Shown piece by piece: positions 5,069-27,182 of a stretch of DNA of 36,390 nucleotides; the first letter of the stretch is position 1, and each line of letters starts with the position of its first letter. The stretch lies in the NCBI GenBank assembly GCA_046085865.1, contig JBJSWM010000138.1, positions 1 to 36,390 on the forward strand, written 5' to 3'. The position numbers were made by a program, and so were the translations under genes. Below the pieces are notes generated by a model. The model was not told the DNA's origin, did no database searches, and saw only the letters and a list, made by a program, of their open reading frames with translations. The stretch is from Pirellulaceae bacterium (lineage in GTDB: Bacteria; Planctomycetota; Planctomycetia; Pirellulales; Pirellulaceae).

Positions 5069-5130
5069 TCTGGGCTGCGCTCTCCTAGAAGCCGATCGTT
5101 TCTTTTGTCTTTCATGAAGGAAGCCAATCG

Positions 5131-7344: not shown

Positions 7345-7395
7345 GTGAGGGAATCTCTACGGCTTTGTTTCAATCCCTATAGGAAACCCGCCCCG

Positions 7396-9894: not shown

Positions 9895-10403
9895 GCCATT
9901 CGAAGGGGAGCCATCCAACGCGACGGCTGATGCTGATGCGGCACGCCAAGAGCGATTGGAATGACCCTTCGCTCTCAGACTTCCAGCGGCCACTGAACCG
10001 GCGCGGACAACAAGCCATTCCCGTCATGGCCAAGTGGCTAGAGCAGCAAGGGGAGAAGGTCGATGCGATCCTGGCCAGCGAAGCGACCCGCGCTAGACAA
10101 ACTGTCGAAGGGATGATCGAAAATCTTGACTGGAGGGGTGCGGTATTTTGGCGCCAGGAACTTTACTTGGCACCACCCGCGACACTGATCGCAGAGATCA
10201 TCCAGATCCCTAACTCTGTCCAATCCCTTCTCCTGGTTGCCCATAACCCCGGATTGGAACAAATGGTGGCCCATTGGAGTGGGAATTGGCAGCCCTTCCC
10301 GACAGCCGCCATCGCCATCTTCGAATTTCAGGGGGACTCATGGGAGGAGGCGATCGGTAGAATGCCGCTGTGCGTGGCGATCGGCAAACCAAAAGAACTG
10401 TAG
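9891..10403 (+). CDS. sixA: SixA-type histidine phosphatase family protein
   Basis: ATG 9891 overlaps the sulfatase stop codon (ATGA, 9891-9894). The LMRHAKS, SEATRARQT and LLVAHNPG blocks fit the histidine-phosphatase/SixA family. About 170 aa. Confidence 0.7.
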   Translation: MSHSKGSHPTRRLMLMRHAKSDWNDPSLSDFQRPLNRRGQQAIPVMAKWLEQQGEKVDAILASEATRARQTVEGMIENLDWRGAVFWRQELYLAPPATLIAEIIQIPNSVQSLLLVAHNPGLEQMVAHWSGNWQPFPTAAIAIFEFQGDSWEEAIGRMPLCVAIGKPKEL

Positions 10404-10420
10404 ATGTCTCGGGCGCAACC

Positions 10421-13045
10421 ATGCGAACCTTCTTCGGCACCAGACGATGGACTACTTGGCAAGGCACTCCGCATGGTCGATCCAACTCGCGGAATGCGAC
10501 TTTAGGAATCGAATCACTCGAATCGCGAAGGCTTCTGACAGCGGAGGGAAGCCCCTGGCCAATCGATCAATCGCTCGATGTTTCCGCCCTGATCGGCACC
10601 CCCTCGGCGATTGCCAAATGGGGCGATGGAACCCAAAGCAGCCTTTCGATCGCTTCTCAGCCTGCATCCGGCTCGATTCGAATACGCTTCGATTACAGCT
10701 ACGATACCGGTAACTTTTTCAATACGCAGCTCAAGAAAGATCTCCTGCAGTTGGCCGCTGACCTCCTGGTCACTCGCTTTTCCGATTCGCTTTCCGCCAT
10801 CACTCCTTCTGGTTCCAACTCCTGGACTCTTTCGTTCACCCATCCGGCGACGGGCAATCTGCAGTCGATCACCAACGCATCGATCGCTGCCAATGAACTG
10901 CTGGTCTTTGTCGGTTCCCGCGACCTGCCGGCGCCTGGGATCGCCGAAGGAGGGTTCGGTGGGTACGCAAGTTCAGGGAGCCCCTCGTGGCTGCAGACCG
11001 TTCAGGCTCGTGGCCAAAGCGGTGCTCTGGCCAGTCCGCCGACCGATTTCGGTCCCTGGGGGGGTAACTTGACCTTTGACCCAACCGTCCCATGGCACTT
11101 TGGCGCAACCACCGAGGGGCTCGAAACAACCGAAAACGACTTCCTCTCGGTCGCCGCTCACGAGATCGCTCATCTCTTGGGATTTGGTGTCGCCAGCAGC
11201 TGGCAAACCTATGTTTCAGGGGCGACGTTCATCGGGCCGCAGTCGATCTTGGCTCATGATGCAGGTGGTGCGATCCCGCTGGCCGCCAGCGGGGCTCACT
11301 GGGTCAACGGAACCACCGATGCCGGGAAAGAGACATTGATGGACCCAAGCCTGACCAAGGGTACGCGGAAGTTGCCGACGCGGCTGGACCTCGCCGGACT
11401 GGATGATCTGGGCTGGCAGGTGATCGAACCAACCGTGCGCGTTCAGGGGACGCACATCTATGGCGACAACGGGACGTTTCCGGTGGAGATTGAACTGACA
11501 GGCAGTCGCATTGGACTGGAGAAAGGCAATGCATCCGCGGCGATCACCAATGCCCCACCTGTTTTCTCTGCCCGCAGCCCGCTCAGTGGGACAGCGCAGG
11601 TACCACTGAATGTGGTGAATTTGGGATCATTCACCGATGCGGGGTTCGGTATCGCATCGCTGCAGCCTCCACGGACCGAGACGTTCGGGTACCGGATCGA
11701 CTGGGGTGATGGTTCCTCGATCGATCAAGGAGATGCAACGATCGATCGTCTGGGGAGCGCCGGGGTGCTGACGGCTGGTTCCTTCGACGGCAACCACACC
11801 TACCTCAATCCTGGCAGCTACACGATGACTCTGACCGTCACCGATGACGACGGAGGCACAGCCACGCAGACGGTTCCAGTAGAAATCAGCGGTGTCCCCA
11901 AACTGATCCTTCGGCTGACGCCGACCTCGATCTCCGAGAATGCCGGCAATGGAGCCGTTCAGTTGACGATTGAGCGATCGGGGTTCCCGGTGGCGCAAAG
12001 CCTCACCGTGCAACTTTCCTCCAGCGATACCAGCGAACTGGTTGTCCCTGCGACCGTCATCATCCCAGCCAACCAGACTCAGGTGGTCGTGCCGCTGGAT
12101 GTGATCGACGACACCTTGCTGGATGGAACCCAGTCGGTCATCGTCTCCGCCCAAGCAGGCAGCGTCATCGCACCCACTGTGACGCTGCAGGTGATCGATC
12201 ATGAAACGCTTTCGGTGACCATCGCACCCTCAAGCATCCGCGAGAATGCGGGACCAGGAGCGGCGCTAGTGACCGTGACCCGATCGAATACCGATCGAAC
12301 CCAAGCGTTGATGGTGACACTCAGCAGTAGCGACATCAGCGAAGCAGCGGTGCCGACGACCTTGATCCTCCCAGCCTTCGCCGCGTCCGCTTCCACGCTG
12401 GTGGATGCTGTCGACGATGATCTGCTGGATGGAACACAGAACGTGTTGCTACAGGCAGACGCATCCGGCTACGTTTCAGGTGGGGCGTCGCTGGCGGTGG
12501 AGGACTTCGAAGCGATCCGCCTGGAAATCACCCCCGGCAATTACTCCGAAGCTCCAGGTGCCAATCAGGGTTCGATCACTCTGAGCGTTCCATTCCTGGT
12601 GCCATCAGGCGGGATGGTGATCCAACTGTCCACCTCCCCCGCAACGCAGATTCAGCTCCCCGGCCAAGTCACCATTCCTGCAGGAAGTCGGTCGGTGCTT
12701 TTCCCATTCCAGATCGTCCAAGACTACGTTGTCGAAGGCACTCAATCGGTTCGCATCCAGGCGCAGGCCACTGGATTGCAGTCGGCTGCCGTCGATCTGG
12801 TCTTCGCTGACGATGACCTTCCGATCTGGCAGAATCCACTCCTACCGACCGATATCGACGGCGACGGCCGTGTCACCCCACGCGATGCCCTCCTGGTGAT
12901 CAATCAGTTGAACCTGCGCGGCCAGGGCCCTTTGGTTCCAGGAGTCGACCCGATAGCGCCTCCCTACCTGGATGCCAGTGGCAATGGCCTGCTAGAACCG
13001 CTCGATGCCCTCCTCGTGATCAATTACTTGAACCTTCAGGGATAG
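10421..13045 (+). CDS. Large secreted multidomain protein: HExxH metalloprotease-like domain, PKD domain, three Calx-beta-like repeats, C-terminal dockerin-type repeats
   Basis: HEIAHLLGFG supplies the HExxH motif. YRIDWGDGS...GNHTYLNPGSYTMTLTVTDDDGG is a PKD domain. There are three ~100-aa repeats with ISENAG...LSSSD...DD.LLDGTQ. DIDGDGRVTPRDALLVINQLN and DASGNGLLEPLDALLVINYLN are dockerin-like. The N-terminal LESLESRRLLTA motif is common in large planctomycete exoproteins. Start taken at ATG 10421. Confidence 0.85.
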   Translation: MRTFFGTRRWTTWQGTPHGRSNSRNATLGIESLESRRLLTAEGSPWPIDQSLDVSALIGTPSAIAKWGDGTQSSLSIASQPASGSIRIRFDYSYDTGNFFNTQLKKDLLQLAADLLVTRFSDSLSAITPSGSNSWTLSFTHPATGNLQSITNASIAANELLVFVGSRDLPAPGIAEGGFGGYASSGSPSWLQTVQARGQSGALASPPTDFGPWGGNLTFDPTVPWHFGATTEGLETTENDFLSVAAHEIAHLLGFGVASSWQTYVSGATFIGPQSILAHDAGGAIPLAASGAHWVNGTTDAGKETLMDPSLTKGTRKLPTRLDLAGLDDLGWQVIEPTVRVQGTHIYGDNGTFPVEIELTGSRIGLEKGNASAAITNAPPVFSARSPLSGTAQVPLNVVNLGSFTDAGFGIASLQPPRTETFGYRIDWGDGSSIDQGDATIDRLGSAGVLTAGSFDGNHTYLNPGSYTMTLTVTDDDGGTATQTVPVEISGVPKLILRLTPTSISENAGNGAVQLTIERSGFPVAQSLTVQLSSSDTSELVVPATVIIPANQTQVVVPLDVIDDTLLDGTQSVIVSAQAGSVIAPTVTLQVIDHETLSVTIAPSSIRENAGPGAALVTVTRSNTDRTQALMVTLSSSDISEAAVPTTLILPAFAASASTLVDAVDDDLLDGTQNVLLQADASGYVSGGASLAVEDFEAIRLEITPGNYSEAPGANQGSITLSVPFLVPSGGMVIQLSTSPATQIQLPGQVTIPAGSRSVLFPFQIVQDYVVEGTQSVRIQAQATGLQSAAVDLVFADDDLPIWQNPLLPTDIDGDGRVTPRDALLVINQLNLRGQGPLVPGVDPIAPPYLDASGNGLLEPLDALLVINYLNLQG

Positions 13046-13411: not shown

Positions 13412-14752
13412 ATGCTTTCGATCTTCGGGCAAAACAGTCGCCTTTGTGGCGGTCTATCACGCCGACAGTTTTTGACGATTGGCGGGCTGTCGTTCGGTGC
13501 TGGTGGTTTTGGACTGGCGGATCTTCTACGTGCTGAGGCCACTAGCGGGAAAAGCACCCACAAGGGGCTGATCAATATTTTCCTTGGTGGTGGTCCACCC
13601 CACCAGGACATGTGGGAGATCAAGACCGAAGCGCCCAGTGAGATTCGTGGTGAGTTTCGACCCATCGCCACCAATGTCCCGGGGATTCAGATCTGCGAAG
13701 TCTTTCCAGAGTTAGCCAAGCGGATGGACAAGTCGGTGGTGATCCGTTCGGTGGTCGGTTGCAAGGATCGCCATGAGGCGTATCAGTGCATGACTGGATG
13801 GTTTCCCGATGACCTGCGGGCAGTGGGGGGCAGGCCTTCGATCGGATCGGCGGTTTCCCGACTCTATGGGCCGACCGATCCATCGGTGCCACCTTATGTG
13901 GGACTGGCCAATCGAACTCAGCATGTCCCCTGGTCGGATCCTGGAAATCCGGGATTCCTGGGTGCGGCGTTTACCCCATTCAAACCGGATGGTCCTGGAA
14001 TGGAGAACATGAAGCTCCAAGGGATCGGCTTGGACCGGCTTCAGGACCGCAAGGCTTTACTTGGCCAGCTAGACAATCTTCGACGGGAGATCGACCAATC
14101 CGGCTCGATGACTGGGATGGATGCATTCAGCCAGCGGGCGCTGGATGTATTGACCAGCAGCCGCCTGCTGGACGCACTCGACCTCTCCAAAGAGGACCCG
14201 AAGGTAGTCGCCCGCTACGGGGATGGCAAGCCATACCAATACCAGTACGACGGAGCCCCCACCTGCAATGACCACTTGCTTCTGGCCCGTCGGCTGATCG
14301 AAGCTGGGGTGCGTGTGGTGAGCCTCAGCTACGGTCGATGGGACAGTCATGGCGACAATTTCAAGCTGGTGCGCGACCACGGATCGAAGCTCGATCAGTG
14401 CCTGAGCGCCCTGATGGATGATCTCGAACAGCGGGGCATGCTGCAGGATGTCAGTGTGGTGGTGTGGGGTGAATTTGGACGCACGCCGAAGATCAACAAC
14501 GGCGCAGGTCGCGACCACTGGGCGCAGGTCAGCTGCGCCTGGATGGCGGGTGGTGGAATTCGCGCCGGTCAGGCCATCGGGGCTACCAACCGGCTTGGAG
14601 AATACGCCACCGAACGACCGGTGCACATGCAAGAAATCATCGCGACGCTGTATCACAACCTAGGAGTCGATGTTTCGTCGACCACCTTGGCCGATCCAAC
14701 CGGCCGTCCCCAGTTCCTCGTAGATCATGGTCCCATCCAGGAATTGATCTGA
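13412..14752 (+). CDS. DUF1501 family protein (sulfatase/alkaline-phosphatase-like fold) with a twin-arginine signal
   Basis: SRRQFLTIGG is a Tat motif. The GGPPHQDMWE, WDSHGDNF, WGEFGRTPKIN and GRDHW blocks are characteristic of DUF1501. Start moved to ATG 13412. Confidence 0.9.
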   Translation: MLSIFGQNSRLCGGLSRRQFLTIGGLSFGAGGFGLADLLRAEATSGKSTHKGLINIFLGGGPPHQDMWEIKTEAPSEIRGEFRPIATNVPGIQICEVFPELAKRMDKSVVIRSVVGCKDRHEAYQCMTGWFPDDLRAVGGRPSIGSAVSRLYGPTDPSVPPYVGLANRTQHVPWSDPGNPGFLGAAFTPFKPDGPGMENMKLQGIGLDRLQDRKALLGQLDNLRREIDQSGSMTGMDAFSQRALDVLTSSRLLDALDLSKEDPKVVARYGDGKPYQYQYDGAPTCNDHLLLARRLIEAGVRVVSLSYGRWDSHGDNFKLVRDHGSKLDQCLSALMDDLEQRGMLQDVSVVVWGEFGRTPKINNGAGRDHWAQVSCAWMAGGGIRAGQAIGATNRLGEYATERPVHMQEIIATLYHNLGVDVSSTTLADPTGRPQFLVDHGPIQELI

Positions 14753-14958
14753 TCGGCAGGCACTGTTCGGACGGAAAGTCCCTTTCACCTAACCAGCCAG
14801 CTCCCTCCCATCCCTTTCGCCTGCCTTCCATGCTTTCAACCGAACGCCGACCAAGGCCGTTTGGACTAGAATCGAAGGGAATCGTCCGGCTGGGGAACTG
14901 ATCTCCCCTTCCGGTCCCGCAAACTGCTTGATCCCGTCCCACTCGCGAGTGTTGCCCC

Positions 14959-17526
14959 ATGCGTCTTCGAATTCGACGATCTGAAGCGTTCGCCGGGTCC
15001 AGCAACCACGAACCCCTTATGGCGATTGCCAGACTGCTGATATGCCTCGCCTGGACAGGTTCGATCGGATCGATTGCAGCGGTATCGGCTGACGATTCGG
15101 TCGCGACTTGTCTGTCGCAGGAGGGGGAGATTGCGGAAGGGACCAGCTTTCGCTTTCTGGAGCGGCAGCTGGAGGGTAAGCCGGTGGGCAACCAGCTTCG
15201 CGGTCGCGACAGCCGTTGGCAACTGCAGGTGGTCGGTCAGTTGCCATCGGGCAAGTCGTTTGACGCGACCCATCGCTTGACCTATCAGGTGCAGCCTCCC
15301 ACGGTGGCTCGCGTCGATGCCATCGGCGTCATCGAGCCGCTATCCAACGGAACAGCGACCGTCGAGGCCCTTTGGAAGGGTTCGGTTGTTGCCAGCGCGT
15401 CGCTGGAGGTTGTTGGTTTTGATTCTTTGCAGCCGGTCGATTTCGGCCAGCAGGTAGTTCCGCTATTCACCAAGTTCGGGTGCAACGGAGGAGGCTGCCA
15501 CGGCAAGCTGTCAGGGCAGAATGGCTTCAAGCTTTCGCTGCTGGGCTTTGACTCTGGGGAAGATTACGAGCATCTGGTGAAGGAAGGACGAGGCCGTCGC
15601 CTGTTTCCTTCAGCGCCCGACCGGAGTCTTTTGTTGATGAAGGCAGTCAACGCTTCACCCCATGGTGGTGGACAGCGGATGGAGGTCGATTCGCACGAGT
15701 ATCGATTGATGCGTCGCTGGATCGAACAGGCGATGCCGCGTGGGTCGGCCAACCCGCCCCAGCTGGTTGCGATTGAAGTCTATCCCAACGCTCTGAAGAT
15801 GCTTCGCAAAGGCTCCCAACAGCTTTCGGTCCTGGCTCGCTACTCCGATGGACTGATCGAAGACATCACGCAAACCGCGCAGTACGATTCGAACAATCTC
15901 GACATGGCCGAGGTCGATCCCAAGGGACGCGTGCGAACGCATGAACTGGCAGGCGATGTCGCCATCATGGCCAGGTACCAGGGGAAAGTGGGCGTCTTTC
16001 GCGCCAGCATCCCGCTGTCCGATCAGCCCCCCAGCTATCCCGAAGCGACCAATCCGATCGACTTGGCGGTCTTTGCCAAACTCAAATCGCTCGGGATTCC
16101 CGCTGCAGCTCCCTGCGATGACAGCACCTTCCTCCGCCGTGTCACGCTGGATATCGCAGGCCGCCTTCCGACCGTTGCAGAGACCCAGTCGTTCCTGTCC
16201 GATAGCGATCCACAGAAGCGATCCCGCTGGATCGATCAGCTGCTGACCAGTAGCGATTACGCCGACTACTTTGCGTCCAAATGGAGCGCCATCCTGCGGA
16301 ATCGCCGAGCCGGTGTCGAAACGCAGTACGGCTCTTACGCCTTCCACGAGTGGATCCGACAGTCGCTTTACGAAAACACCCCGTACGATCGCTGGGTGCG
16401 CCAGTTGATGACCGCCTCCGGTGCCGTTGAAGCCAATCCGGCGGTGGTGTGGTGGCGCGAGGTGAACAATACCGAGTCGCGGGTGGAAGATGCGGCGCAG
16501 CTGTTTTTGGGTCAGCGAATCCAGTGCGCGCGATGCCACCATCATCCTTTTGAGAAGTGGAGTCAGGACGACTACTACCAGCTGTCCGCTTTCTTCTCGA
16601 CGGTCGAACGCAAGGAAGGTCGGTTGCCGCAGGAGCCGATGTTTGTGTCGCGCGTCGGCAAGGCAGAGGCAAGGCATCCGAAGACGGGCAAGCCATTGAA
16701 CGCCGCCGGCTTGGAAGCCAACGCGATCGACCTGGATCCGACGATCGATCCACGCACCGCACTAGCCGACTGGATGGTGGCCCCCAGCAACCCCTTCTTC
16801 GCCAAATCGCTCGCCAACCGCTATTGGAAGCACTTCTTCGGGCGCGGCCTAGTCGATCCCGAGGATGACATGCGCGCCACCAACCCACCGACCAACCCGG
16901 AATTGCTCGATGCGCTCGCCCAGGGCCTCGTCGACTCGGGCTACGATCTGAAGCAGTTGGTTCGGTCGATCTGCAATTCGCAGGTCTATCAGTTCTCGGC
17001 TCAGGCCGAAGGCGAGGTGCTGAAGGACACCACCAGTCATGCTCGGTTCTATCCGCGGCGGATGACGGCCGAAGTGCTGCTGGATGCCATCGATGTGGTC
17101 TGCCAGACCAAGACAGGATTCGATGGCATGCCGGCTGGAACACGCGCAGTCAGCTTGCCGGACACCCAGTTCAACTCCTATTTCCTGACCGTTTTTGGCC
17201 GGCCCGAATCGTCGACCGCCTGCGAATGCGAACGAGCCCAGGGGGCCAATCTGGCGCAAAGCCTCCATCTGCTCAATTCGAAAGACATCCAGGCGAAACT
17301 CTCGGCAGATCAGGGACTGGCTGCGGTGATGGCGTCCGATACCACCCATGGCAACGATCAGAAAATCAATGAACTTTACCTTCGAGCATTCTCCAGGCAG
17401 CCCAATCCGCAGGAAATCAAGACCGCTCTCGACTATCTTGAAAAGAAGAAGGATCAACCCCGAGAGGCGATGGAAGACCTCATCTGGGCAATCCTCAACA
17501 GCAAGGAGTTCCTCTTCAATCATTGA
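14959..17526 (+). CDS. DUF1549/DUF1553 (PSCyt2 + PSD1) protein with an N-terminal Big_2-like Ig domain
   Basis: FTKFGCNGGGCHGKLSGQNGFKLSLLG and CARCHHHPFEKWSQDDYY match DUF1549/PSCyt2. FGRPESSTACECER and the terminal NSKEFLFNH match DUF1553/PSD1. A signal peptide is present. ATG 15019 is an alternative start. Confidence 0.9.
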   Translation: MRLRIRRSEAFAGSSNHEPLMAIARLLICLAWTGSIGSIAAVSADDSVATCLSQEGEIAEGTSFRFLERQLEGKPVGNQLRGRDSRWQLQVVGQLPSGKSFDATHRLTYQVQPPTVARVDAIGVIEPLSNGTATVEALWKGSVVASASLEVVGFDSLQPVDFGQQVVPLFTKFGCNGGGCHGKLSGQNGFKLSLLGFDSGEDYEHLVKEGRGRRLFPSAPDRSLLLMKAVNASPHGGGQRMEVDSHEYRLMRRWIEQAMPRGSANPPQLVAIEVYPNALKMLRKGSQQLSVLARYSDGLIEDITQTAQYDSNNLDMAEVDPKGRVRTHELAGDVAIMARYQGKVGVFRASIPLSDQPPSYPEATNPIDLAVFAKLKSLGIPAAAPCDDSTFLRRVTLDIAGRLPTVAETQSFLSDSDPQKRSRWIDQLLTSSDYADYFASKWSAILRNRRAGVETQYGSYAFHEWIRQSLYENTPYDRWVRQLMTASGAVEANPAVVWWREVNNTESRVEDAAQLFLGQRIQCARCHHHPFEKWSQDDYYQLSAFFSTVERKEGRLPQEPMFVSRVGKAEARHPKTGKPLNAAGLEANAIDLDPTIDPRTALADWMVAPSNPFFAKSLANRYWKHFFGRGLVDPEDDMRATNPPTNPELLDALAQGLVDSGYDLKQLVRSICNSQVYQFSAQAEGEVLKDTTSHARFYPRRMTAEVLLDAIDVVCQTKTGFDGMPAGTRAVSLPDTQFNSYFLTVFGRPESSTACECERAQGANLAQSLHLLNSKDIQAKLSADQGLAAVMASDTTHGNDQKINELYLRAFSRQPNPQEIKTALDYLEKKKDQPREAMEDLIWAILNSKEFLFNH

Positions 17527-17568
17527 GGAGGCTCCTCCCACCGAACCTACCTCGCCGATTGAGTTGCC

Positions 17569-19719
17569 ATGAGCCTGCGTGCTTTATCGTTTGCGCTGGC
17601 CCTGCTGCTGGCCCGTCCAGTTGCTGGCCAGCTTCCGGTCATCGAACTACGTTCTCTGGTCCCCATGGTGGTGCAGTCTGGAGCGACGATCCCGATGCGA
17701 GCCGACGCGGCGTCGGGGGAAGAGATCGATCGTCTCGTGTTCTCTCAAGCGGGCATCCAGGCGACGCTAGTGACCAGCGCCCCGCGTCCTCTGACCGATC
17801 AGCGTGTTGCTCAGCATGGCCAGTTCCAGGTTGCTTTTCCCGCCGAACTGCCGATGGGCTTGGTGGAGGCCCGCGCCGTTGGCCGTTTTGGCATCTCCAA
17901 TCCCCGGCCTCTGTTGGTCACGCCCCTGCCCGTTCAGGAAGCGCCTGCCGATCGAGGCACCCTCGAGGCTCCAGTGGAACTGCCTCCCAACGTTTGGTGG
18001 CACACTCAGGCCGGTGGCGCTCAGAAGTCCTATCTCAAACTGATCGCTCCCGCAGGACAGCTCTGCTCCCTCTCGATTTTCGCTCCCCCCAATCACACGC
18101 GCGCCATTCCTGCCGTGGTCATTCGCGATGCGGCAGGAAGAGAGATTCTGCGAAGCCGAGTGCTGGGAGGGGCTCCCTGGAGCTGGTCGCAGACGCCCGA
18201 TTCGGACACGCAGTACATCGTCGAGCTTCGTGATTTTCTCTATCGCGGCGGGGAGGAGATGCGGTACTGCATCCTGCATGGGCAGGGACAGTTGCCGTGG
18301 CAGTCGCTGGAACCCCTTCCTGAATCTTTGGCAGCTTTCTCCCCCTCCAGCCTCGGTTATGCTCGCTGGTTCGATCCTGCGATCCCCGTGACCACACTGG
18401 CCGAGACCCCAGAATCCAAACCGCTTTCGGTGGCGGTCCCGGCGCTGGTAGAGGGAGCGATCGAAGCCGACTTCGATCGCGATGCGATTGAGTTTCCGGT
18501 TGCCGCCAATCGCCCCGTGGTCATCGAAGTTCTCTCCGATCGCATGGCGCAGTGGACCGATCTCCGGCTGGTGCTCGACAAGGTCGACCGATCGCCAGAG
18601 GGAGTCGAGAAGCTGGAGAGGATCGCCGTGATCGATGACCTGGGAGCGGTGGGGGCCCCGGCGATGTCGCTTGGCACTCGCGATCCGGCCCATCTTTTGA
18701 ACCTGCCGGCCGATAGCACGGTCCGAGCGACCTGGATGGATCTTCAGACCGGCCGGCGCGTTCCAAGATCGGCCTATCGATGCCTGATTCGCGAAGCCAA
18801 ACCCGATCTGGAAGCGATCGCATACTGGCCATTTCCTACCAACAATGCCGCGACCGGAAGACCTGCGGGTGTCCATCTGCTTCGCGGAGGCAACCAGTCG
18901 CTGCGCGTGGTGGTGCGAAGGCTGGATGGATGGAACGGCCCGGTGCGGCTGAAGATCGATCCACTACCACCTGGAATTCAATCCCCGGAAATTGTTCTTT
19001 CACCGGAACAAAATGAAGGGGAGCTGGTCCTCAGCGCCGCAGAGGATGCCCCCGCCTTCCTTGGGCCGGTGCAGGTCGTTGCATCGGCGAGGATTGGAGA
19101 GGCCGACGTCGTCAAGCAGTCCGCCTACGGCACACTCGCACAACCAGCAACCGGAGATCGTGGTGCCATCCAATCGAGGCAGTGTGACAGCCTGTGGCTG
19201 GCCGTTAGCGATCGCGACCTCCATCCTTTGCAGGTGCGCGCTGGAGCCGATCCGGTCCCGGAGATTGTGCAAGGTGCCAAATGGGCGATCCCCATCCAGG
19301 TCGCTAGACGCCCAGGCGGGGACCAGAACTGCGTGCTTCGACCGCAAAATCTACCCCCCAAGGCAGGGCTGGGCGAACTGACCATCGAAGCCGCCAAGGC
19401 GGATGCGGCTCCCGAAATCCAGATCGCCGCCGATACGCCGCCCGGGGACTATACCTTCTGGTTCCAGGTCGAATCGAAAGTGAAGATGAAGACCAATCCT
19501 CAGGCGTTGGAGCGAGAGCGAGCCGCGAGGATGCACTGGCAAGCGATCGTTGACGACCCCAATCGCGCGGGGGATCACGAAGCGGCCAAAAAGGAGCTGG
19601 CGGCATGCGACCAGCGCATCGAACAGCTCAAACCGCACGAGAGCGACCGCGAATTCACTGTTTTCTTTCCTTCGACTCCTGTGCGAATCAAGGTGATCGC
19701 TCCACCCCCCGCTTCGTGA
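17569..19719 (+). CDS. Secreted hypothetical protein, 716 aa, no family recognised
   Basis: It has a Sec-type signal (MSLRALSFALALLLARPVAGQ) and coding-like composition. It sits 42 bp after the PSD1 gene on the same strand. Segments such as GAIEADFDRDAIEFPVAANRPVVIEV resemble pre-peptidase C-terminal (PPC) type beta-sandwich domains. The C-terminus is a charged helix. Confidence 0.7.
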   Translation: MSLRALSFALALLLARPVAGQLPVIELRSLVPMVVQSGATIPMRADAASGEEIDRLVFSQAGIQATLVTSAPRPLTDQRVAQHGQFQVAFPAELPMGLVEARAVGRFGISNPRPLLVTPLPVQEAPADRGTLEAPVELPPNVWWHTQAGGAQKSYLKLIAPAGQLCSLSIFAPPNHTRAIPAVVIRDAAGREILRSRVLGGAPWSWSQTPDSDTQYIVELRDFLYRGGEEMRYCILHGQGQLPWQSLEPLPESLAAFSPSSLGYARWFDPAIPVTTLAETPESKPLSVAVPALVEGAIEADFDRDAIEFPVAANRPVVIEVLSDRMAQWTDLRLVLDKVDRSPEGVEKLERIAVIDDLGAVGAPAMSLGTRDPAHLLNLPADSTVRATWMDLQTGRRVPRSAYRCLIREAKPDLEAIAYWPFPTNNAATGRPAGVHLLRGGNQSLRVVVRRLDGWNGPVRLKIDPLPPGIQSPEIVLSPEQNEGELVLSAAEDAPAFLGPVQVVASARIGEADVVKQSAYGTLAQPATGDRGAIQSRQCDSLWLAVSDRDLHPLQVRAGADPVPEIVQGAKWAIPIQVARRPGGDQNCVLRPQNLPPKAGLGELTIEAAKADAAPEIQIAADTPPGDYTFWFQVESKVKMKTNPQALERERAARMHWQAIVDDPNRAGDHEAAKKELAACDQRIEQLKPHESDREFTVFFPSTPVRIKVIAPPPAS

Positions 19720-19797
19720 TCAAGCGAATCGGAACTCAACGAATCTCCAATGGCTGGTAGTGAAACGATGAGCAACATTTCGATCGAGAAACGTCCT

Positions 19798-22644
19798 ATG
19801 AATTGCAATCATCGGTTGTTCTTTGGCACGCTGACCGGATGGCTTGCCTGCTCCTTGATGTGCGTCGCGGCAGCGGCTGCGCAGGGAGCCGAGCCGGTGG
19901 ATTTCACCAAACAGATCTTGCCGCTGCTTCGCAAACACTGTGTCGCATGCCACAACACCAAGACCGCCGAAGGTGGATTGATCTTGGAAAACCATGAGGC
20001 ATTGATGCGCGGTGGCGACAGTGGCGCCACGATCAGCACCGATGCGGCGACCACCAGTTTGCTGGTCGATCGGATCACCGGGGCGATCGAGCCGATCATG
20101 CCGCCCGAAGGGAATTCGGTTGGCGCCAAGCCATGGACAGCCGACGAGGTGCAGCTTCTTAAACAGTGGATCGCCGAAGGTGCCCATCCTGGAAGCGGTG
20201 AGGCAAGCGCGTCGTGGAATTGGCAGCCGCTACCCGGACAATTGCAGCCGATCTACGCAGCAGCGGCGACTGCCGATGGGCAATATGCAGCGGTAGGCCG
20301 TGGCAATCGCCTGACGATCTATCGCTGGCCTGCGATCCATGGAGCCGAAGGGGCTCAGGCATTGATCGATCCGGCAGTCAAACAGCAACTCGGAGATCAG
20401 GCTCCCGATGCATCGCACCTCGATCTGATCCAGTCGATCGCCTTCAGCCCAGATGGTCAGTGGCTGGCATCCGGAGGATTCCGAGAAGTCAAACTTTGGA
20501 AGCGCAAGGTAGAACCTTTGGCAACCTCTCCCTGGCGCATCGAAGGCGCCGCCACGCTAGCCGCCACACCCGATGGCAGCCGCATCGCACTGGCCCTGGC
20601 CGATCACAGCGTGGTGCTTGGCAAAGGGGAAACCCGACTGGCCCTTCTTGCCGCTCGATCGGCGGCCGTCCAGCATTTGGCGATCTCCCCCTCCGGACAG
20701 CGACTGCTGATCGGCTTGGCCGATGGTCGATGGGAGTGGTGGAATCTGGATGGAATCCCCGACGATGGTAGCGCCGCCGCTCAGCCCCTGAGCGACGAAC
20801 GCCGCTTGGGAGAGAAAGCCGATGGTGGCTCGATGAAGCAGATGATCCTGCTGGACAACGATCGACTAGCGACTTTGGACGAAGCGAACGCGGTTGGGCT
20901 ATGGGAGATCGCACCCCCTGCCGATCCCGCACCCCCTGCCGATCCCACTGCGCCCGCGCCTGGGGCTCCCAGCATCATCGCCACGGCGATCGCGGCGCCG
21001 CTGGCACCGGCCAATGCGATCGCTAGGCTGGAGTCCCCTGCAGCAGCGCCCTATCCCTCACCCCGCATCGCCTTGGCGGCTGAAGATGGTTCGGTGCGGA
21101 TCGCGGAACTGCCGACAGGCAACGTGCTGGCCACTCTGGCCCACGGGGCTCCCGTGCGATCCGTTGCTTCCTCTCCCGATGGCCAGTTGATCGCCACCGC
21201 GGCCACCGATGCCAGCATCAAATTCTGGAAAGTGGCCGATGGACAGATGGCCTCGGAGGTGCGCGGCACGCAGAATTCGCAGCGGCTGCTACGCCAAACC
21301 CAGCGACAGCTGGCGCGACAGAACGGGCGCATCGAACGCCTGGCAGCTCGCATCCCCGAAATGGAAAAAGGAGTCGCCGCCGAAACGGAGGCTCGCACCA
21401 AGCAGCAGGCAGTGCGCGATAAAGCGGCCGAGATGGTCGCTGCAAAGGTCAAGGAGATGGAGACCGCGACCGCCGCCATGACCGCCGCCCAGCAGGCCGT
21501 CGAGCAGGCGATGAAGGACCTGGAAGCCAAGAAACAGGAGGTCGCCAAGGCGGAGACAGCGAAGAAGCAGGCAGAGACGGAACTGGCCACTCAGGATCAG
21601 ACTCTCAAGGCCGCCGACGAGGCGATTGAGCGAGCCAAGCAGGCGATTCCGACCCAGCAGATGCTGATTGAGAAAGAAAAACAAATCCTGGCTCAGCATC
21701 AGCAGGCAGTCGACCAGGCAACCGCCGCCGGAACCCAGATCGCGCCGATTCGTCAGGTCACCTTCTCGGCCGATGGCCGTTCGGCCATCGCCCTGCACGA
21801 CGACCAGACGTTGCAGGTGATCCGTGTCGATCGCGCTAAACCCGAAGCTCTCCTCGCTCAGGCACCCGCCGAAATCCGCCGACTGGTCTGCAGCCAGTCT
21901 GGACAATTGCTAGCGGCTCATCCCGGCGGAACTACCCTTTGGGATTTGCGCCTGCCATGGGAACTGGTCCGAAGTGTCGGCAATCACCAGCAGTCTCCCA
22001 TCAGCGATCGCGTCACAGCGCTCGACTTTCATCCCAACGGCCAGCTGCTGGCGGTGGGATCAGGCCCGGCAAGCCGCGTTGGGCAGATTGCCATCCTTTC
22101 GCTAGCCGATGGCTCAGTCGTCAAGGACATGCCCGAAGTCCACAGCGACAGCGTCGTCTCCCTTCGCTTCTCTCCCGATGGAACGCTGCTGGCCAGTGGT
22201 GGCGCCGACAAGATCATCCGCCTTTTTGACACCGCCTCATGGCAGTTCCTGAGGACGATGGAAGGGCACACCCACCATGTGTTGGGATTGGCCTGGCAGG
22301 ATGACGGGCAAACGCTAGCTTCCGCGAGTGCCGACAACACCATCAAGATCTGGGACTCCTCCAGCGGCCAACAGCTGCGCACCATCGGAGGCTTTGGCAA
22401 GGAGGTAACCGCTTTGGGGTACCTCGGACAGACCCAGCAACTCTACAGCGCCTCAGCAGACCAGCAGGCGCGTCTGCACGAAGGGAGCAATGGGCAGGGA
22501 ATTCGGTCCTTTGGGGGAGCCGCTGATGCTCTTTACGCTGCGGCAGTGGCGGAGGATGGGCCATGGATCCTGGCAGGCGGTCAGGATGGAAAACTCTGGA
22601 TTTGGCAACTCGACAATGGCCAGGCATTGCAGCAGATCCAGTGA
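19798..22644 (+). CDS. PSCyt1 (planctomycete cytochrome c) domain protein with two WD40 propeller regions separated by a long coiled coil
   Basis: A CVACH heme-c site lies in FTKQILPLLRKHCVACHN (nt 19939-19953). WD40 blades include IQSIAFSPDGQWLASGG, VVSLRFSPDGTLLASGGADKIIRLFD and HVLGLAWQDDGQTLASASADNTIKIWD. A signal peptide follows MNCNH. In-frame alternative starts are at 19750 and 19768. Confidence 0.85.
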   Translation: MNCNHRLFFGTLTGWLACSLMCVAAAAAQGAEPVDFTKQILPLLRKHCVACHNTKTAEGGLILENHEALMRGGDSGATISTDAATTSLLVDRITGAIEPIMPPEGNSVGAKPWTADEVQLLKQWIAEGAHPGSGEASASWNWQPLPGQLQPIYAAAATADGQYAAVGRGNRLTIYRWPAIHGAEGAQALIDPAVKQQLGDQAPDASHLDLIQSIAFSPDGQWLASGGFREVKLWKRKVEPLATSPWRIEGAATLAATPDGSRIALALADHSVVLGKGETRLALLAARSAAVQHLAISPSGQRLLIGLADGRWEWWNLDGIPDDGSAAAQPLSDERRLGEKADGGSMKQMILLDNDRLATLDEANAVGLWEIAPPADPAPPADPTAPAPGAPSIIATAIAAPLAPANAIARLESPAAAPYPSPRIALAAEDGSVRIAELPTGNVLATLAHGAPVRSVASSPDGQLIATAATDASIKFWKVADGQMASEVRGTQNSQRLLRQTQRQLARQNGRIERLAARIPEMEKGVAAETEARTKQQAVRDKAAEMVAAKVKEMETATAAMTAAQQAVEQAMKDLEAKKQEVAKAETAKKQAETELATQDQTLKAADEAIERAKQAIPTQQMLIEKEKQILAQHQQAVDQATAAGTQIAPIRQVTFSADGRSAIALHDDQTLQVIRVDRAKPEALLAQAPAEIRRLVCSQSGQLLAAHPGGTTLWDLRLPWELVRSVGNHQQSPISDRVTALDFHPNGQLLAVGSGPASRVGQIAILSLADGSVVKDMPEVHSDSVVSLRFSPDGTLLASGGADKIIRLFDTASWQFLRTMEGHTHHVLGLAWQDDGQTLASASADNTIKIWDSSSGQQLRTIGGFGKEVTALGYLGQTQQLYSASADQQARLHEGSNGQGIRSFGGAADALYAAAVAEDGPWILAGGQDGKLWIWQLDNGQALQQIQ
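20911..20946 (+). repeat. Perfect 18-bp tandem duplication inside the WD40 gene (gcaccccctgccgatccc x2), encoding APPADP x2
   Basis: Read directly from the sequence. It is in frame within a Pro/Ala-rich linker. Confidence 0.9.
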
Positions 22645-22796
22645 ACAGGTCTGCCGGACCTGATCGAATCCCTAATTTTTTGGTCCAACTCTTCCACTGG
22701 GTGTGAACGCGCCCCAGGGGAGGATCGTCCAAGCCATGGGTCTGGATCCAAGACTCTGGCTTTCTTTTTCCCCTTAGCTCCGCCTAATGGGCGAAA

Positions 22797-22825
22797 TTGA
22801 CCCGCGGGGATCTGGCCGCTATTCT
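22797..22825 (+). promoter_or_regulatory. Candidate sigma-70-type promoter for the DUF1559 gene (TTGACC-N17-TATTCT)
   Basis: The -35 element TTGACC is at 22797-22802, followed by a 17-nt spacer and the -10 element TATTCT at 22820-22825. It lies 79 nt upstream of ATG 22904. This is sequence resemblance only, and planctomycete promoter rules are poorly defined. Confidence 0.3.
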
Positions 22826-22903
22826 AAAACGGGGTTTTCGTTCGCACCTCGCTTGGCCCGACGGGGTGTGTATTCATCAAGGGTCACACTGGAGGCAAGG
22901 ATC

Positions 22904-23917
22904 ATGAAACGAGGGAAGCGGGGTGCATTTACCCTGGTGGAGCTGTTGGTGGTGATCGCCATCATCGGAGTCCTGGTCGGTTTGCTTTTGCCGGCGGTCC
23001 AGGCGGCACGCGAAGCGGCTCGACGCATGCAATGCTCGAACAATCTCAAGCAGATTGGTTTGGCGTTCATGAATTACGAATCGACGTACAAGACGTTCCC
23101 GGCTGCCTATTACATCGGGTTGGCGACGCCTAGCACCTACAACATCCAGCCTTTGGGTCCAGCGCTGTTGCCATTTCTGGAGCAGACCAACTTGGCCAAT
23201 GGCTACGATTCGCGCGTGACACCTGCAGACCAGTTTGGACCGATCGGCCAGGCCAACGTCGCGATCATCTCGACCCCGCTGGCGATGTTCACCTGTCCTT
23301 CGGCACCTGGTTCGGCCACCGAACGGATTTATACCGGTGTCATCCCCGCCGGGACGCTTCCTGGTCTTCCGAATCTCACCTACAAAGCAGCACCTTCGGA
23401 CTACTGCGTCACCACCGGCGTGCTCGGATTTTACGCCAACCTAGCCTATGCCAACCAAGGTGGCGCCGGTGGAGATCGCCACGGTGCCCTTCGTGTGGCC
23501 ACCTTCCAGGGGCCGGAGCGCAACCGAATTGCCGATATCCTCGACGGCACCACCAACACCTTCCTGATGGGTGAGAAGACCGGCGGAAATACTTTCTACT
23601 CGGGGATTCGGAAGATTCCTGGAATTCCGGCTCCCTTCAATGGGCTCAATGGCGGTGGCTGGGGCGACCCGCTCAACGGCGAGCATTGGCTGGGGGGTTC
23701 GGTACGCAATCCATCGTTCCCTGCCGCTCAGGGGCCATGCGCCATCAATTGCACGAACATCCGTGGTGCTGGATTCCACTCGCTGCACGCGGGTGGAAGT
23801 CAGTTTGTGATGTGCGATGGTTCGGTGCAGTTCGTCGGGTCGGGAGTCGATCCCTTCTCGATGGCAGCCCGCATCACTCGTCAGAAGGCGGAAGTGGCTC
23901 CCACCGACGATCTGTGA
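22904..23917 (+). CDS. DUF1559 protein with a prepilin-type N-terminal cleavage/methylation domain and an H-X9-DG motif
   Basis: The N-terminus is MKRGKRGAFTLVELLVVIAIIGVLVGLLLPAVQAAREAARRMQCSNNLKQIGLA. LHAGGSQFVMCDGSVQFV supplies H-X9-DG. GGAGG lies 8 nt upstream of ATG 22904. Confidence 0.9.
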   Translation: MKRGKRGAFTLVELLVVIAIIGVLVGLLLPAVQAAREAARRMQCSNNLKQIGLAFMNYESTYKTFPAAYYIGLATPSTYNIQPLGPALLPFLEQTNLANGYDSRVTPADQFGPIGQANVAIISTPLAMFTCPSAPGSATERIYTGVIPAGTLPGLPNLTYKAAPSDYCVTTGVLGFYANLAYANQGGAGGDRHGALRVATFQGPERNRIADILDGTTNTFLMGEKTGGNTFYSGIRKIPGIPAPFNGLNGGGWGDPLNGEHWLGGSVRNPSFPAAQGPCAINCTNIRGAGFHSLHAGGSQFVMCDGSVQFVGSGVDPFSMAARITRQKAEVAPTDDL

Positions 23918-24111: not shown

Positions 24112-24552
24112 ATGATGCAATTACGATCGTCGTTGATCGCCCTCAGCGCGATTCTGCTGACTTCGGTAGTCGGTTGTGGACCTGCCAAATTCTCCGGCGA
24201 GAAGGATGCTCGTCCTGTCAAAGGCATTGTCAAGGTGGATGGCCAACCGGCCAACGCCCTGCAAGTCACCATGCACCCGCTCAACCCTGATCCCAGCAAT
24301 CCAACGATCTCCACCGCGTTGTGTGGAGCCGATGGTGCTTTTGCTGTGTCGACCTATGAGTCGGGGGATGGGGCGCCCGATGGAGAGTACGTGCTGACGT
24401 TTCTTTGGGGATCGATCAACCCGATGACGATGGCCTATGGCGATCCCGACAAGCTCAATGGACGCTACACCGATCCAAAGAAATCGACTCAGAAGGTAAC
24501 GATCGCTGGCAAGCCTGTCGATTTGGGTACGATCGAACTGAGTTCCAAGTAA
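24112..24552 (+). CDS. Small lipoprotein, of the carboxypeptidase-regulatory-like beta-sandwich type often found next to DUF1559 genes
   Basis: The signal MMQLRSSLIALSAILLTSVVGC has a lipobox Cys. GGAGG lies 5 nt upstream of the start. VKGIVKVDGQPANALQVTMHP is a typical first strand pair. Start moved to ATG 24112. Confidence 0.7.
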   Translation: MMQLRSSLIALSAILLTSVVGCGPAKFSGEKDARPVKGIVKVDGQPANALQVTMHPLNPDPSNPTISTALCGADGAFAVSTYESGDGAPDGEYVLTFLWGSINPMTMAYGDPDKLNGRYTDPKKSTQKVTIAGKPVDLGTIELSSK

Positions 24553-24597
24553 GCACTTCTTCCGAATGACATGAGAACCGGGGAACAGGGGAATCGG

Positions 24598-25977
24598 ATG
24601 GATCGGCGCCAAGCATGTTCGACGATGGTTGGGGCGGCCGGAGCGTTGCTGGCAGGGAATTCCTGGTCGCAGCTTCTCGGCCAGGATCAGGTTCCCTTCG
24701 CATCGAGCGCTCTTCGCGATTACGTCGCCGCCGATGACGCCAGCTACCACTCGATCTGCAAGCAATCGGGAAAAATCGACTCCGTATCGTGGTCGCGACT
24801 GCACGTTGTCTCGCAGACGTGGCGTGCCGTCCCTTGGCGGCATGTGGTCTGGATCTTTCTCCCCGATGGCTCGACCGGACCAGCCTCCCAGCGTGCCATG
24901 CTGCATATCAGTGGAGGGGTTTGGGAACCGGAGTGGCCTGAAGACGGTCCAGCCGATCTGGCACCTGGACCTTCCGCAGCGCGCTGGATCAACTTGGCCA
25001 AGGCGACGGGCAGCCCCGTGGTGGTCGCCGAACAAATACCTTTCCAGCCGATGTTCGACGGCTTGGTGGAAGACCAGATCATCTCGATGACCTTCCTTCA
25101 GTTTGTCAAAACTGGGGATCGATCGTGGCCTCTTCTGTTTCCGATGGTCAAGGCAGCGGTGCGGGCGATGGATGCTGCGCAAGCGCACTGCCAGCAACAC
25201 CACCACTGGAAGCTCGATCATTTCACCGCCTTCGGAAGTTCGAAACGCGGATGGACGACGTGGCTGGTGGGAGCTGTCGATCGACGCATCGATGCGATGG
25301 CACCGACGGTGATCGATGTGCTCAACATGGAAGCGCAGATGGTCCATCAGAAGAAGACCTGGGGAAAGTACTCCGAGCAGATTGCCGACTACAGCGACAA
25401 AGGGCTTCCCGATCTGGTCGCCACACCCAAGGGGAAAGAACTGGTGCAGATGGTCGACCCGTTTGCATTCCGCCATGCGATCTCGCAGCCCAAGCTGCTG
25501 ATTTTTGGAACCAACGATCGGTACTGGCCGGTCGATGCCTGCTCCCTTTATTGGGACCAGTTGGTCGGAGACAAATACCTGCTCTACACCCCAAATCAGG
25601 GCCATGGGATCCGCGATCTCCAGCGCATCGATGGCAGCCTTGCGGCGCTGCACCGAAGCCGTTGTGGCGGCCCGCCATTGCCGACACTTCAGTGGCAATT
25701 CGAGGACTCGCAGACCCGTTCGATCGAGCTGTCGATGCATTGCGAACCTGCGCCCAAAAAGCTTCAGGCATGGGTCGCCCGATCGGAAACCCGCGACTTT
25801 CGCGACGCGAAGTGGGAAGCGATGCCAGTGGCAGCAAGCGATCGGAAGGTGGGGCGATTTCAGATCGACCGCGAGGACAGCTTCGTCGCCGTCTTCGGCG
25901 AATACATTTTCGATCAAGACCCCATCGATGCCTATTTCTCGACCAACCTGCAGATCTATGAACCACTTCGCCCATGA
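24598..25977 (+). CDS. PhoPQ-activated pathogenicity-related (PqaA-type) family protein, alpha/beta-hydrolase-like
   Basis: FGSSKRGWTTWLVGAVDRRIDAMAPTVIDVLNM and LIFGTNDRYWPVD match the PhoPQ-related family as I remember it. A signal-like N-terminus is present. ATG 24571 is an alternative start. Confidence 0.75.
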   Translation: MDRRQACSTMVGAAGALLAGNSWSQLLGQDQVPFASSALRDYVAADDASYHSICKQSGKIDSVSWSRLHVVSQTWRAVPWRHVVWIFLPDGSTGPASQRAMLHISGGVWEPEWPEDGPADLAPGPSAARWINLAKATGSPVVVAEQIPFQPMFDGLVEDQIISMTFLQFVKTGDRSWPLLFPMVKAAVRAMDAAQAHCQQHHHWKLDHFTAFGSSKRGWTTWLVGAVDRRIDAMAPTVIDVLNMEAQMVHQKKTWGKYSEQIADYSDKGLPDLVATPKGKELVQMVDPFAFRHAISQPKLLIFGTNDRYWPVDACSLYWDQLVGDKYLLYTPNQGHGIRDLQRIDGSLAALHRSRCGGPPLPTLQWQFEDSQTRSIELSMHCEPAPKKLQAWVARSETRDFRDAKWEAMPVAASDRKVGRFQIDREDSFVAVFGEYIFDQDPIDAYFSTNLQIYEPLRP

Positions 25978-26087
25978 CGCCAGTTGGTGATTCCCGACAG
26001 ATACAGCAAGGCTTCCCGGAGCGACTGCAGGTTTAGCAAACGATTCTTTTTCTTGCTCTTGGACCAGATCTTGGGAGACACCCATCG

Positions 26088-27182
26088 ATGGCACACGAAG
26101 TCACTTTGATCCTTGGCGATGGAACCGGACCCGAACTGGCGGAAGCCGCTCGCTTCTGCATCGATGCGACGGGAGTCAAGATCCACTGGGACGTTCAAGA
26201 AGCAGGAGTCGACGTGATGGCGCGTCTGGGCACTCCCATCCCGGACAGCACGCTGGCCAGTATCCGCCGGACCCGCTGCGCGCTGAAAGCGCCGATCACC
26301 ACACCCGTCGGAACAGGCTTTCGCAGCATCAACGTCTACCTCCGACAGGAACTGGGGCTTTACGCTTGCATCCGCCCCTGCAAGCTCTATCCGGGCGTGC
26401 GGTCCTTCTTCAAGGATGTCGGTGTCGATCTGGTGATCGTCCGGGAGAATACCGAAGACCTCTATGCAGGAGTGGAATTCGAAGCGGGCAAGCCGGAGAC
26501 CAGCGCCCTGATCGATCACATCAACAGCCTTCCCAGCGATAAGAAGATCAAGACCAAGGGGAATGAAACCGGTATTTCGATCAAGCCGATCAGCGTTACC
26601 GGAACGCAGAATATCGTCCGCTGCGCCTTCGATTACGCTCGAAAACACCGCCGACGCAAGGTGACTGCCGTCCATAAAGCCAACATCATGAAGTTCAGTG
26701 ATGGGCTTTTTCTGAAAACCGCTGCCGACTTAGCCAAGGACTATCCAGAGATTGAGTTTGAGGAACGGATCGTCGACAACATGTGCATGCAACTGACGCA
26801 GAAACCAGAGCTGTATGATGTTTTGGTGCTGCCGAATCTGTATGGCGATATCGTCAGCGATCTAGGGGCGGGACTGATCGGCGGACTGGGGATGGCACCG
26901 GGAGCCAACATCGGTCCTGGAGGCGCTGTGTTCGAGGCGACCCACGGCAGCGCACCGAAGTACAAGGGACTCAACAAAGTCAATCCAACCGCCCTGATCC
27001 TTTCGGGGATGTTGATGCTGGAGCATCTGGGAGAGACCGATGCCGCGAGGCGACTGGAACATGCCGTCGCCTCCGTCATCGCCGAAGGTCAAGCCGTCAC
27101 CTATGATCTCAAGGCCGATCGCAACGATCCGACTGCCGTAGGCACCCGAGAAATGGCAAAGGCCATCTGCGATCGACTTTGA
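26088..27182 (+). CDS. icd: Isocitrate dehydrogenase (isocitrate/isopropylmalate dehydrogenase family)
   Basis: Supporting motifs are [63 protein letters not shown] and [13 protein letters not shown]. Cofactor specificity cannot be assigned by eye. Confidence 0.8.

Follow-up and report, generated by a model that had tools for sequence, protein, structure and literature searches.

Few protein families are as expanded in Planctomycetota and Verrucomicrobiota as DUF1501 and PSCyt/PSD1, and no member of either has a tested function (PMC3542564; PMC5615132). What, then, is to be made of a locus in which a DUF1501 gene, a PSD1 gene and two further genes, all for apparently exported proteins, stand in a row on one strand? 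The locus occupies positions 13412–22644 of a contig of 36,390 nucleotides from a Pirellulaceae bacterium (JBJSWM010000138.1, assembly GCA_046085865.1), the whole of which is called the window in the following. In an initial annotation, made from the sequence alone, the four genes were proposed to form an undescribed system. We find that they are a real, conserved unit and one copy of a four-gene DUF1501 module already known from the Planctomycetes–Verrucomicrobia–Chlamydiae (PVC) bacteria, so the window adds no new kind of system. What is new lies within the module: the size of the family to which its third protein belongs, a subfamily of its second protein marked by a CX4CH motif, a DUF1501 protein without the sulfatase signature, and the co-inheritance of genes 2–4.

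The claim of novelty fails against Kamneva et al. (2012; Genome Biol Evol 4:1375; PMC3542564), who surveyed the gene neighbourhoods of DUF1501 in PVC genomes and reported exactly this architecture. Their cluster comprises a DUF1501 protein, sometimes with a twin-arginine signal, a signal-peptide protein with weak PPC domains and two further proteins, one with PSCyt1/Big_2/PSCyt2/PSD1 and one with PSCyt1/WD40. The authors suggested roles in membrane targeting and in the transport of electrons but left the function open, and linked the cluster, which correlates at 0.852 with compartmentalised PVC species, to ‘intracellular membranes’. Later papers still give the function as not known (PMC5615132; PMC4452313; PMC5587647), the last of them naming DUF1501 as a frequent neighbour of planctomycete WD40 genes, and no experimental study came up in a full-text literature search under the names of the DUF and Pfam families.

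The four genes and their boundaries

The genes lie on the forward strand, in a window of 58–63% G+C:

13412–14752, + strand: gene 1, DUF1501 protein with a twin-arginine translocation (Tat) signal, 446 amino acids from M27 of an open reading frame (ORF) that opens at 13334
14753–15018, + strand: spacer between genes 1 and 2, the sole long junction of the cluster, 206 bp to the ATG at 14959 and 266 bp to the ATG at 15019
14959–17526, + strand: gene 2, 855 amino acids, or 835 amino acids if it starts at 15019 (Pfam, orthologues, NCBI gene call)
17569–19719, + strand: gene 3, 716 amino acids, ORF intact
19750–22644, + strand: gene 4, 964 amino acids, likely start at 19798 (Pfam, orthologues)

All four genes are intact, and the gaps between them are those first annotated, namely 206 (or 266), 42 and 30 (or 78) bp. 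Gene 1 likely starts at 13412, as initially annotated, because its orthologues are all about 447 amino acids long and the alignment begins at M27. For genes 2 and 4, the NCBI gene calls on a near-identical contig from a Pirellulaceae metagenome-assembled genome (MAG; GCA_046089925.1) use the equivalents of 15019 and 19798, which gives gaps of 266, 42 and 78 bp. Gene 4 also varies in length at the strain level, as is indicated by a comparison of window positions 19798–22644 with positions 5315–8143 of an NCBI MAG contig (L128), where gene 4 is 18 nucleotides shorter and the gene 3 protein is identical.

The spacer between genes 1 and 2 contains no promoter- or terminator-like site above background, in a scan that is uninformative on operon structure, and Rfam found no match there or anywhere else in the window. 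None of the four proteins matches a known anti-phage defence model in PADLOC, and NCBIfam has no family for genes 1–3.

As had been proposed, all four products look exported, judging by their sequences alone and without a predictor. Gene 1 carries an invariant twin-arginine pair, while the proteins of genes 2–4 have Sec-type N-termini, with a hydrophobic stretch that is followed by an Ala-rich, cleavage-like site. The individual motifs quoted in the initial annotation (SRRQFL, GCNGGGCHG, CARCHHH and CVACH) are likewise all in place.

Conservation of the cluster across two phyla

The gene 2 motif GCN.GGCHGK was turned into a degenerate DNA pattern, which was scanned against a genome collection and returned at least 120 loci as fixed 8-kb blocks, onto which the four families were mapped by profile searches. 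The sample is not exhaustive, and the synteny counts derived from it are lower bounds. The loci come from Pirellulales, Gemmatales, Planctomycetales, Isosphaerales, Phycisphaerae and several orders of Verrucomicrobiota. Seven MAG records with planctomycete-type clusters (L009, L019, L023, L029, L033, L040 and L107), titled Kuenenia stuttgartiensis, Akkermansia muciniphila, Alcaligenaceae, Chitinophaga or Klebsiella, apparently stem from mislabelled or contaminated bins and are left out of these taxonomic claims.

Synteny beyond the DUF1501/PSD1 pair had been suggested as a check, and it is found: the full quartet is kept, in the same order and on one strand, in Stieleria maiorica and at least ten diverged loci. 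The order 1-2-3-4 occurs in L001 (S. maiorica), L003, L005, L006, L011, L047, L048, L062, L095, L097 and L127. The first of these is a cultured strain, S. maiorica Mal15 (CP036264), in which gene 3 is Mal15_12480. In S. maiorica, two unrelated metagenome contigs and a more distant pair of contigs, the quartet stands on one strand between entirely different flanks, and the gene 3 proteins of these five are just 25–33% identical to that of the window in pairwise alignment; in a multiple alignment of 16 syntenic loci, the range is 20–33%. In L001 and L003, stop and start codons overlap at the junctions. This includes the junction between genes 1 and 2, unlike in the window with its spacer of 206–266 bp. 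Because the quartet recurs in so many diverged genomes, its linkage is far beyond chance.

Partial and rearranged forms occur as well. The order 2-3-4 is seen in L036, L039, L083 and L112, and in 25 of the 36 loci with at least 3 kb of downstream sequence, a relative of gene 3 follows gene 2 on the same strand. Paralogous clusters occur in the permuted orders 2-1-3, 3-2-1, 4-2-1-3 and 2-1-4, again with the linked genes on one strand. The order 2-1-3 was observed in L016, L017, L022, L028, L066–L068, L100, L107, L115 and L121, and the order 3-2 or 3-2-1 in L023, L031, L032, L052, L078, L099 and L101. What stays linked in these permuted clusters is the trio of PSD1, DUF1501 and gene-3-type genes, while the WD40 gene is mostly missing; the trio may therefore represent the more general unit.

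Across 17 loci, the pairwise-identity matrices of genes 2, 3 and 4 correlate at r=0.66–0.82, which is what would be expected for co-inheritance; since the pairs depend on one another, the values serve as description only.

The DUF1501 protein

Gene 1 matches the Pfam family DUF1501 (1.6e-84) and no other, and is 74–83% identical to its orthologues across more than 120 sequence clusters. Its export motif is located as follows:

13457–13474, + strand: twin-arginine motif SRRQFL; the RR is present in 83 of 83 aligned relatives

The initial annotation had ascribed a sulfatase/phosphatase-type fold to this protein, and an AlphaFold2 model, built from an alignment of the 83 relatives, bears this out at the level of a remote alkaline-phosphatase/sulfatase-superfamily fold (predicted local distance difference test, pLDDT, 77; predicted template modelling score, pTM, 0.78). 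A Foldseek search of the PDB with the model gave 19 matches at E<=1e-3, with template modelling (TM) scores of 0.33–0.40 and about 10% identity. Among the best matches listed are S1 sulfatases, 3lxq (annotated as a member of the alkaline-phosphatase superfamily), LtaS, YejM and phosphonate monoester hydrolase. A sequence profile search of the PDB identified no solved relative of gene 1, the best sulfatase match having E=0.37.

True sulfatases are recognised by the formylglycine signature [CS]xPxR, which is absent from gene 1. It occurs in just 9 of the 83 close and 2 of 32 diverse relatives and is thus not a conserved feature of the family. Conserved instead are H64, D66, H121, T/S128, D311, H313, D368 and H369 (numbered from M27), which are invariant or nearly so in both the 83 close and the 32 diverse relatives. 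From this conservation and the order of the strands, we infer an Asp/His metal site with a Thr/Ser nucleophile, which would resemble the sites of phosphodiesterase- and phosphotransferase-type members of the superfamily rather than those of sulfatases. The Ser of the common DUF1501 motif ‘GGPSH’ was also considered as the nucleophile and rejected, because this position varies among S, P, A and T.

The PSCyt2/PSD1 protein

Gene 2 has significant Pfam matches to PSCyt2 (2.1e-48), PSD1 (8.1e-48) and Big_2 (3.2e-7), and its orthologues are 50–62% identical. From its N-terminus, the protein consists of a signal peptide, an immunoglobulin (Ig)-like domain, a divergent PSCyt1-like domain, Big_2, PSCyt2 (DUF1549) and PSD1 (DUF1553). 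The following features bear on its possible haem or metal sites:

15436–15744, + strand: PSCyt1-like domain, residues 160–262, found by BLASTP (E=3e-9) through its similarity to PSCyt1 of gene 4
15478–15504, + strand: CX4CH motif GCNGGGCHG, in place of CxxCH
15658–15672, + strand: PHGGG, in place of MPP
16525–16545, + strand: CARCHHH of the PSCyt2 domain; C523, C526, H527, H528 and H529 are shared by all aligned orthologues

The PSCyt1-like domain goes undetected by the Pfam PSCyt1 model on account of its CX4CH motif. This motif is kept in five of five full-length orthologues and is present in the at least 120 genome loci described above. Together with PHGGG, and without an axial Met, it marks a PSCyt1 variant that is characteristic of a large Big_2/PSCyt2/PSD1 subfamily (L008–L127). 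Searches of solved structures by sequence found no homologue of the PSCyt2/PSD1 region; matches of gene 2 were limited to Big_2 repeats in teneurin-like proteins. Carbohydrate-binding modules are known to occur in PSCyt proteins (PMC5615132).

The β-sandwich protein

Gene 3 has no match in Pfam or NCBIfam and had been described as an orphan, a description that does not hold. A profile of 14 members, searched against 1.84 billion representative proteins, gave 23,539 matches at E<=1e-3, 12,072 at E<=1e-10 and 5,263 at E<=1e-30. The 150 best of these matches are 660–1,985 amino acids long, and mostly 700–1,100. A word-index search had yielded 16 homologues, and homologues carry faint or weak matches to PF04151. 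With at least 5,263 clusters at E<=1e-30 and no Pfam or NCBIfam model, the family is a candidate for a new family definition. The stretch FGISNPR (17887–17907) and several Gly, Asp and Pro positions are nearly invariant in it.

The AlphaFold2 model of gene 3 (pLDDT 81, pTM 0.78) shows a signal helix, a chain of PPC/Ig-like β-sandwiches at residues 27–640, a helical hairpin at residues 644–691 and two terminal strands. Foldseek returned only multi-β-sandwich proteins and PPC/collagen-binding domains for it (5sv5, TMt 0.76) and no enzyme fold, while sequence searches of solved structures gave nothing useful. The predicted build is thus that of a non-enzymatic β-sandwich protein. When the length of the helical hairpin was compared by eye with that of the coiled coil in gene 4, no simple relation emerged.

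The PSCyt1-WD40 protein

Gene 4 matches PSCyt1 (1e-12), WD40 (2.9e-54) and many β-propeller models in Pfam. A signal peptide is followed by a PSCyt1 monohaem-type domain, two propellers and the coiled coil between them:

19939–19953, + strand: CVACH, the CxxCH motif of the PSCyt1 domain
20098–20106, + strand: MPP, the axial-Met motif of the PSCyt1 domain
about 20197–21264, + strand: divergent WD40 propeller, residues 150–505 (Pfam)
about 21262–21729, + strand: coiled coil, weak matches to proteins of the SMC (structural maintenance of chromosomes) type at residues 505–659
about 21727–22641, + strand: C-terminal WD40 propeller (Pfam; WD40 matches in the PDB)

The CxxCH domain that had been assigned to this protein is borne out by its orthologues, seven of which share C48, C51, H52 and M101-P102-P103 (alignment numbering) without exception, residues that would provide haem attachment and a distal ligand. 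The two WD40 propellers and the coiled coil also stand, with the N-terminal propeller being the more divergent and the roughly 150 residues between the two matching only coiled-coil families, and these weakly. The first propeller is poorly conserved, and the length of the coiled coil differs widely among orthologues. Best conserved is the C-terminal propeller, in which GHT.HV is invariant (the window has GHTHHVL), and this propeller is also the part retained in a short form of the protein encoded in L007. Against solved structures, gene 4 gives only generic WD40 matches. A membrane-coat-like reading of the protein was dropped, as its helices form a variable coiled coil flanked by the propellers and not a C-terminal solenoid.

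What the module may do

We read the quartet as an operon-like unit whose four exported products would act together in the periplasm or the cell envelope, and we put the probability of this at roughly 55%. The chemistry of the module is held with lower confidence than this general picture. At its best, the reading is one of an exported enzyme–partner pair with two scaffold proteins. The DUF1501 protein would be the catalytic subunit, a metal-dependent hydrolase or transferase of phospho- or sulfo-esters, working with Thr or Ser as the nucleophile and His and Asp as ligands of the metal and not with the formylglycine chemistry of true sulfatases. The product of gene 2 would be its dedicated partner, as in many two-gene pairs, binding the substrate and carrying Cys/His sites for haem or metal. 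The products of genes 3 and 4, i.e. the β-sandwich array and the protein with haem-c domain, propellers and coiled coil, would be non-catalytic scaffolds or tethers that hold the enzyme pair in position, or that tether or present the macromolecular substrate on which it acts. Sequence identity falls from 74–83% for gene 1 (close orthologues) over about 50–60% for gene 2 and about 30–37% for gene 4 to about 20–33% for gene 3, a gradient in keeping with a single catalytic subunit, its dedicated partner and two binding or scaffold proteins that evolve faster.

Several observations weigh against this picture. The identity matrix of gene 1 correlates less well with those of genes 2–4 (r=0.33–0.55 across the 17 loci, values that are likewise descriptive), so that the latter three appear to be more tightly co-inherited with one another than with gene 1. 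Gene 1 is also the least tightly linked member, not standing beside the other genes in L002, L026, L030 and L083; in L002, there is no DUF1501 gene and gene 2 is shortened. In L005, whose quartet is otherwise orthologous, the DUF1501 protein (5074–6603) is a distant paralogue with 27% identity, compared with 52–86% in other quartets, which suggests that the enzyme partner can be swapped. L007 (3054–7070) holds genes 3 and 4 only, and there is no DUF1501/PSD1 gene within 3 kb upstream or about 8.6 kb downstream of this minimal pair, which consists of an 872-residue relative of gene 3 followed by a 460-residue protein with PSCyt1 and a single propeller. In the window itself, genes 1 and 2 are 206–266 bp apart. 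On the structural side, the resemblance of the gene 1 model to sulfatases is remote, given the TM scores of 0.33–0.40 and the identity of about 10%, and about 19% of the model lies below a pLDDT of 50. The proposed active-site residues follow from conservation and strand order, not from three-dimensional geometry. Finally, the three conserved Cys-His motifs of the module may mean that redox chemistry is central to it rather than accessory.

This last point leads to the proposal of Kamneva et al. (2012), a periplasmic or membrane-associated electron-transfer chain, in which the haem c of gene 4 and the haem or metal sites of gene 2 would exchange electrons with a bound substrate, and DUF1501 would be an accessory or a cofactor-bearing enzyme. 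Such a role would account for the canonical CxxCH and axial Met (MPP), invariant in gene 4 orthologues, for the CX4CH and conserved PHGGG in a gene 2 domain homologous to PSCyt1, and for the invariant CxxCHHH of PSCyt2; Tat export of DUF1501 would fit the loading of a cofactor in the cytoplasm, and the hypothesis has already been put forward in the literature (PMC3542564). Yet about 3,000 residues contain a single canonical haem motif, a quinol-oxidising or membrane-integral partner is absent from the cluster, the flanks are variable, and the sole enzyme-like fold is of the hydrolase/transferase type and not that of an oxidoreductase. We regard a redox module as the main rival reading, but as rather unlikely. 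A combination of both ideas is more speculative still: a haem-c-coupled complex around a non-formylglycine enzyme of the alkaline-phosphatase superfamily, with a chemistry new to that superfamily, e.g. the redox-linked cleavage or modification of esters on a macromolecular substrate held by the scaffold. We consider this a long shot, but if true, it would give a first function to hundreds of planctomycete and verrucomicrobial DUF1501/PSD1 gene pairs.

Two further explanations dispense with an enzyme complex altogether. The module might have an architectural role in the envelope, building or organising some structural feature of the PVC cell, with propellers, coiled coil and β-sandwich arrays as structural elements. 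About 1,700 of its about 3,000 residues belong to repeat or scaffold domains, the variable length of the gene 4 coiled coil is typical of spacers, and the cluster correlates with compartmentalised PVC species (0.852; PMC3542564). This correlation, however, is confounded by phylogeny, and Verrucomicrobiota with a variety of cell plans carry the cluster, too. Moreover, planctomycete ‘compartments’ are now understood as invaginations of a Gram-negative envelope, which counts against such a role. The most conserved member of the module is the enzyme-like DUF1501 (74–83% identity across more than 120 clusters), which argues for catalysis; a purely structural role is unlikely, and we give this explanation little credence. 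The other explanation is that the four genes stand together merely because their families are so abundant. DUF1501, PSD1 and WD40 genes are indeed numerous in planctomycete genomes (PMC3542564; PMC5587647), and the gap of 206–266 bp after gene 1 in the window could be read in this way. The synteny refutes it: the same four orthologues recur, in the same order, in many genomes of two phyla and between unrelated flanks, which leaves chance adjacency with next to no probability. As a very strongly conserved variant, whose DUF1501 protein is 74–83% identical across more than 120 clusters, the four-gene form is a sensible entry point for experiments, and it is at hand in a cultured strain.

Neighbouring genes

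Several other genes surround the quartet in the window. Upstream lie a gene for an 849-residue protein (7345–9894), in which a true Sulfatase domain (9.6e-56) is fused to NHL/teneurin-type β-propeller repeats, and one for an 891-residue protein (10370–13045) whose C-terminal domain is a dockerin of type I; this protein also has PKD domains, matches Matrixin weakly and shows a faint ‘Planctomycete extracellular’ motif. Directly 3' of gene 4, past a weak terminator-like hairpin at 22738–22756, there is a DUF1559/N-terminal-methylation (pseudopilin-like) gene at 22787–23917; L001 likewise has a DUF1559 gene downstream, but on the opposite strand. The quartet of the window is followed within about 2 kb by a PhoPQ-activated pathogenicity-related gene (PF10142; 24571–25977). 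Such a gene also stands directly downstream of the quartet in L006 (15817–17205), on the opposite strand, and was not seen in other loci extending as far downstream. Antisense to it in the window, a 657-residue ORF on the reverse strand (24121–26094) has no Pfam match and is probably a spurious product of high G+C content. The DUF1559, PhoPQ-related, sulfatase-NHL and dockerin genes were considered as parts of the module and rejected, as they are not consistently linked to the cluster elsewhere.

Comparison with known systems

At the level of single domains, the PSCyt1 domain of gene 4 resembles class I c-type cytochromes in its CxxCH and downstream Met-Pro-Pro, with which it would bind a putative haem. 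It differs from them in sharing one polypeptide with two WD40 propellers and a coiled coil, and the copy in gene 2 differs further in having CX4CH and no Met. The gene 1 model shares, with remote similarity, the core α/β fold of the alkaline-phosphatase superfamily, as seen in LtaS, YejM and phosphonate monoester hydrolase (TM 0.33–0.40), and its conserved Asp and His residues would follow the core strands as they do there. S1 sulfatases are among the best structural matches of the model as well, but gene 1 has neither their C/S-x-P-x-R nor a significant match to the Sulfatase family.

At the level of gene pairs, a Tat-exported DUF1501 protein beside a large exported partner, as found here, is familiar from the two-gene DUF1501 and PSCyt1/PSCyt2/PSD1 pairs of Planctomycetes and Verrucomicrobia (PMC3542564), of which L003 holds a plain example at 17405–22190. 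The DUF1800 and DUF1501 pairs of Proteobacteria likewise place DUF1501 next to a large exported partner (PMC5122149). Compared with the two-gene DUF1501/PSD1 pairs, the window adds genes 3 and 4, and its gene 2 has Big_2 and the CX4CH variant, not a canonical N-terminal PSCyt1.

By far the closest relative is the four-gene DUF1501 module of PVC bacteria itself. Gene 1 corresponds to its DUF1501 protein with a twin-arginine signal (1.6e-84; SRRQFL), gene 3 to its signal-peptide protein with a weak PPC domains (PPC/collagen-binding-like sandwiches in the model; 5sv5, TMt 0.76), gene 2 to its PSCyt1/Big_2/PSCyt2/PSD1 protein (PSCyt1 by BLASTP, E=3e-9) and gene 4 to its PSCyt1/WD40 protein (1e-12 and 2.9e-54). 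The genes are adjacent here as they are across Planctomycetota and Verrucomicrobiota. Nothing essential differs between the two, and the copy in the window is set apart by the CX4CH motif in gene 2 and by the 206–266 bp spacer that precedes it.

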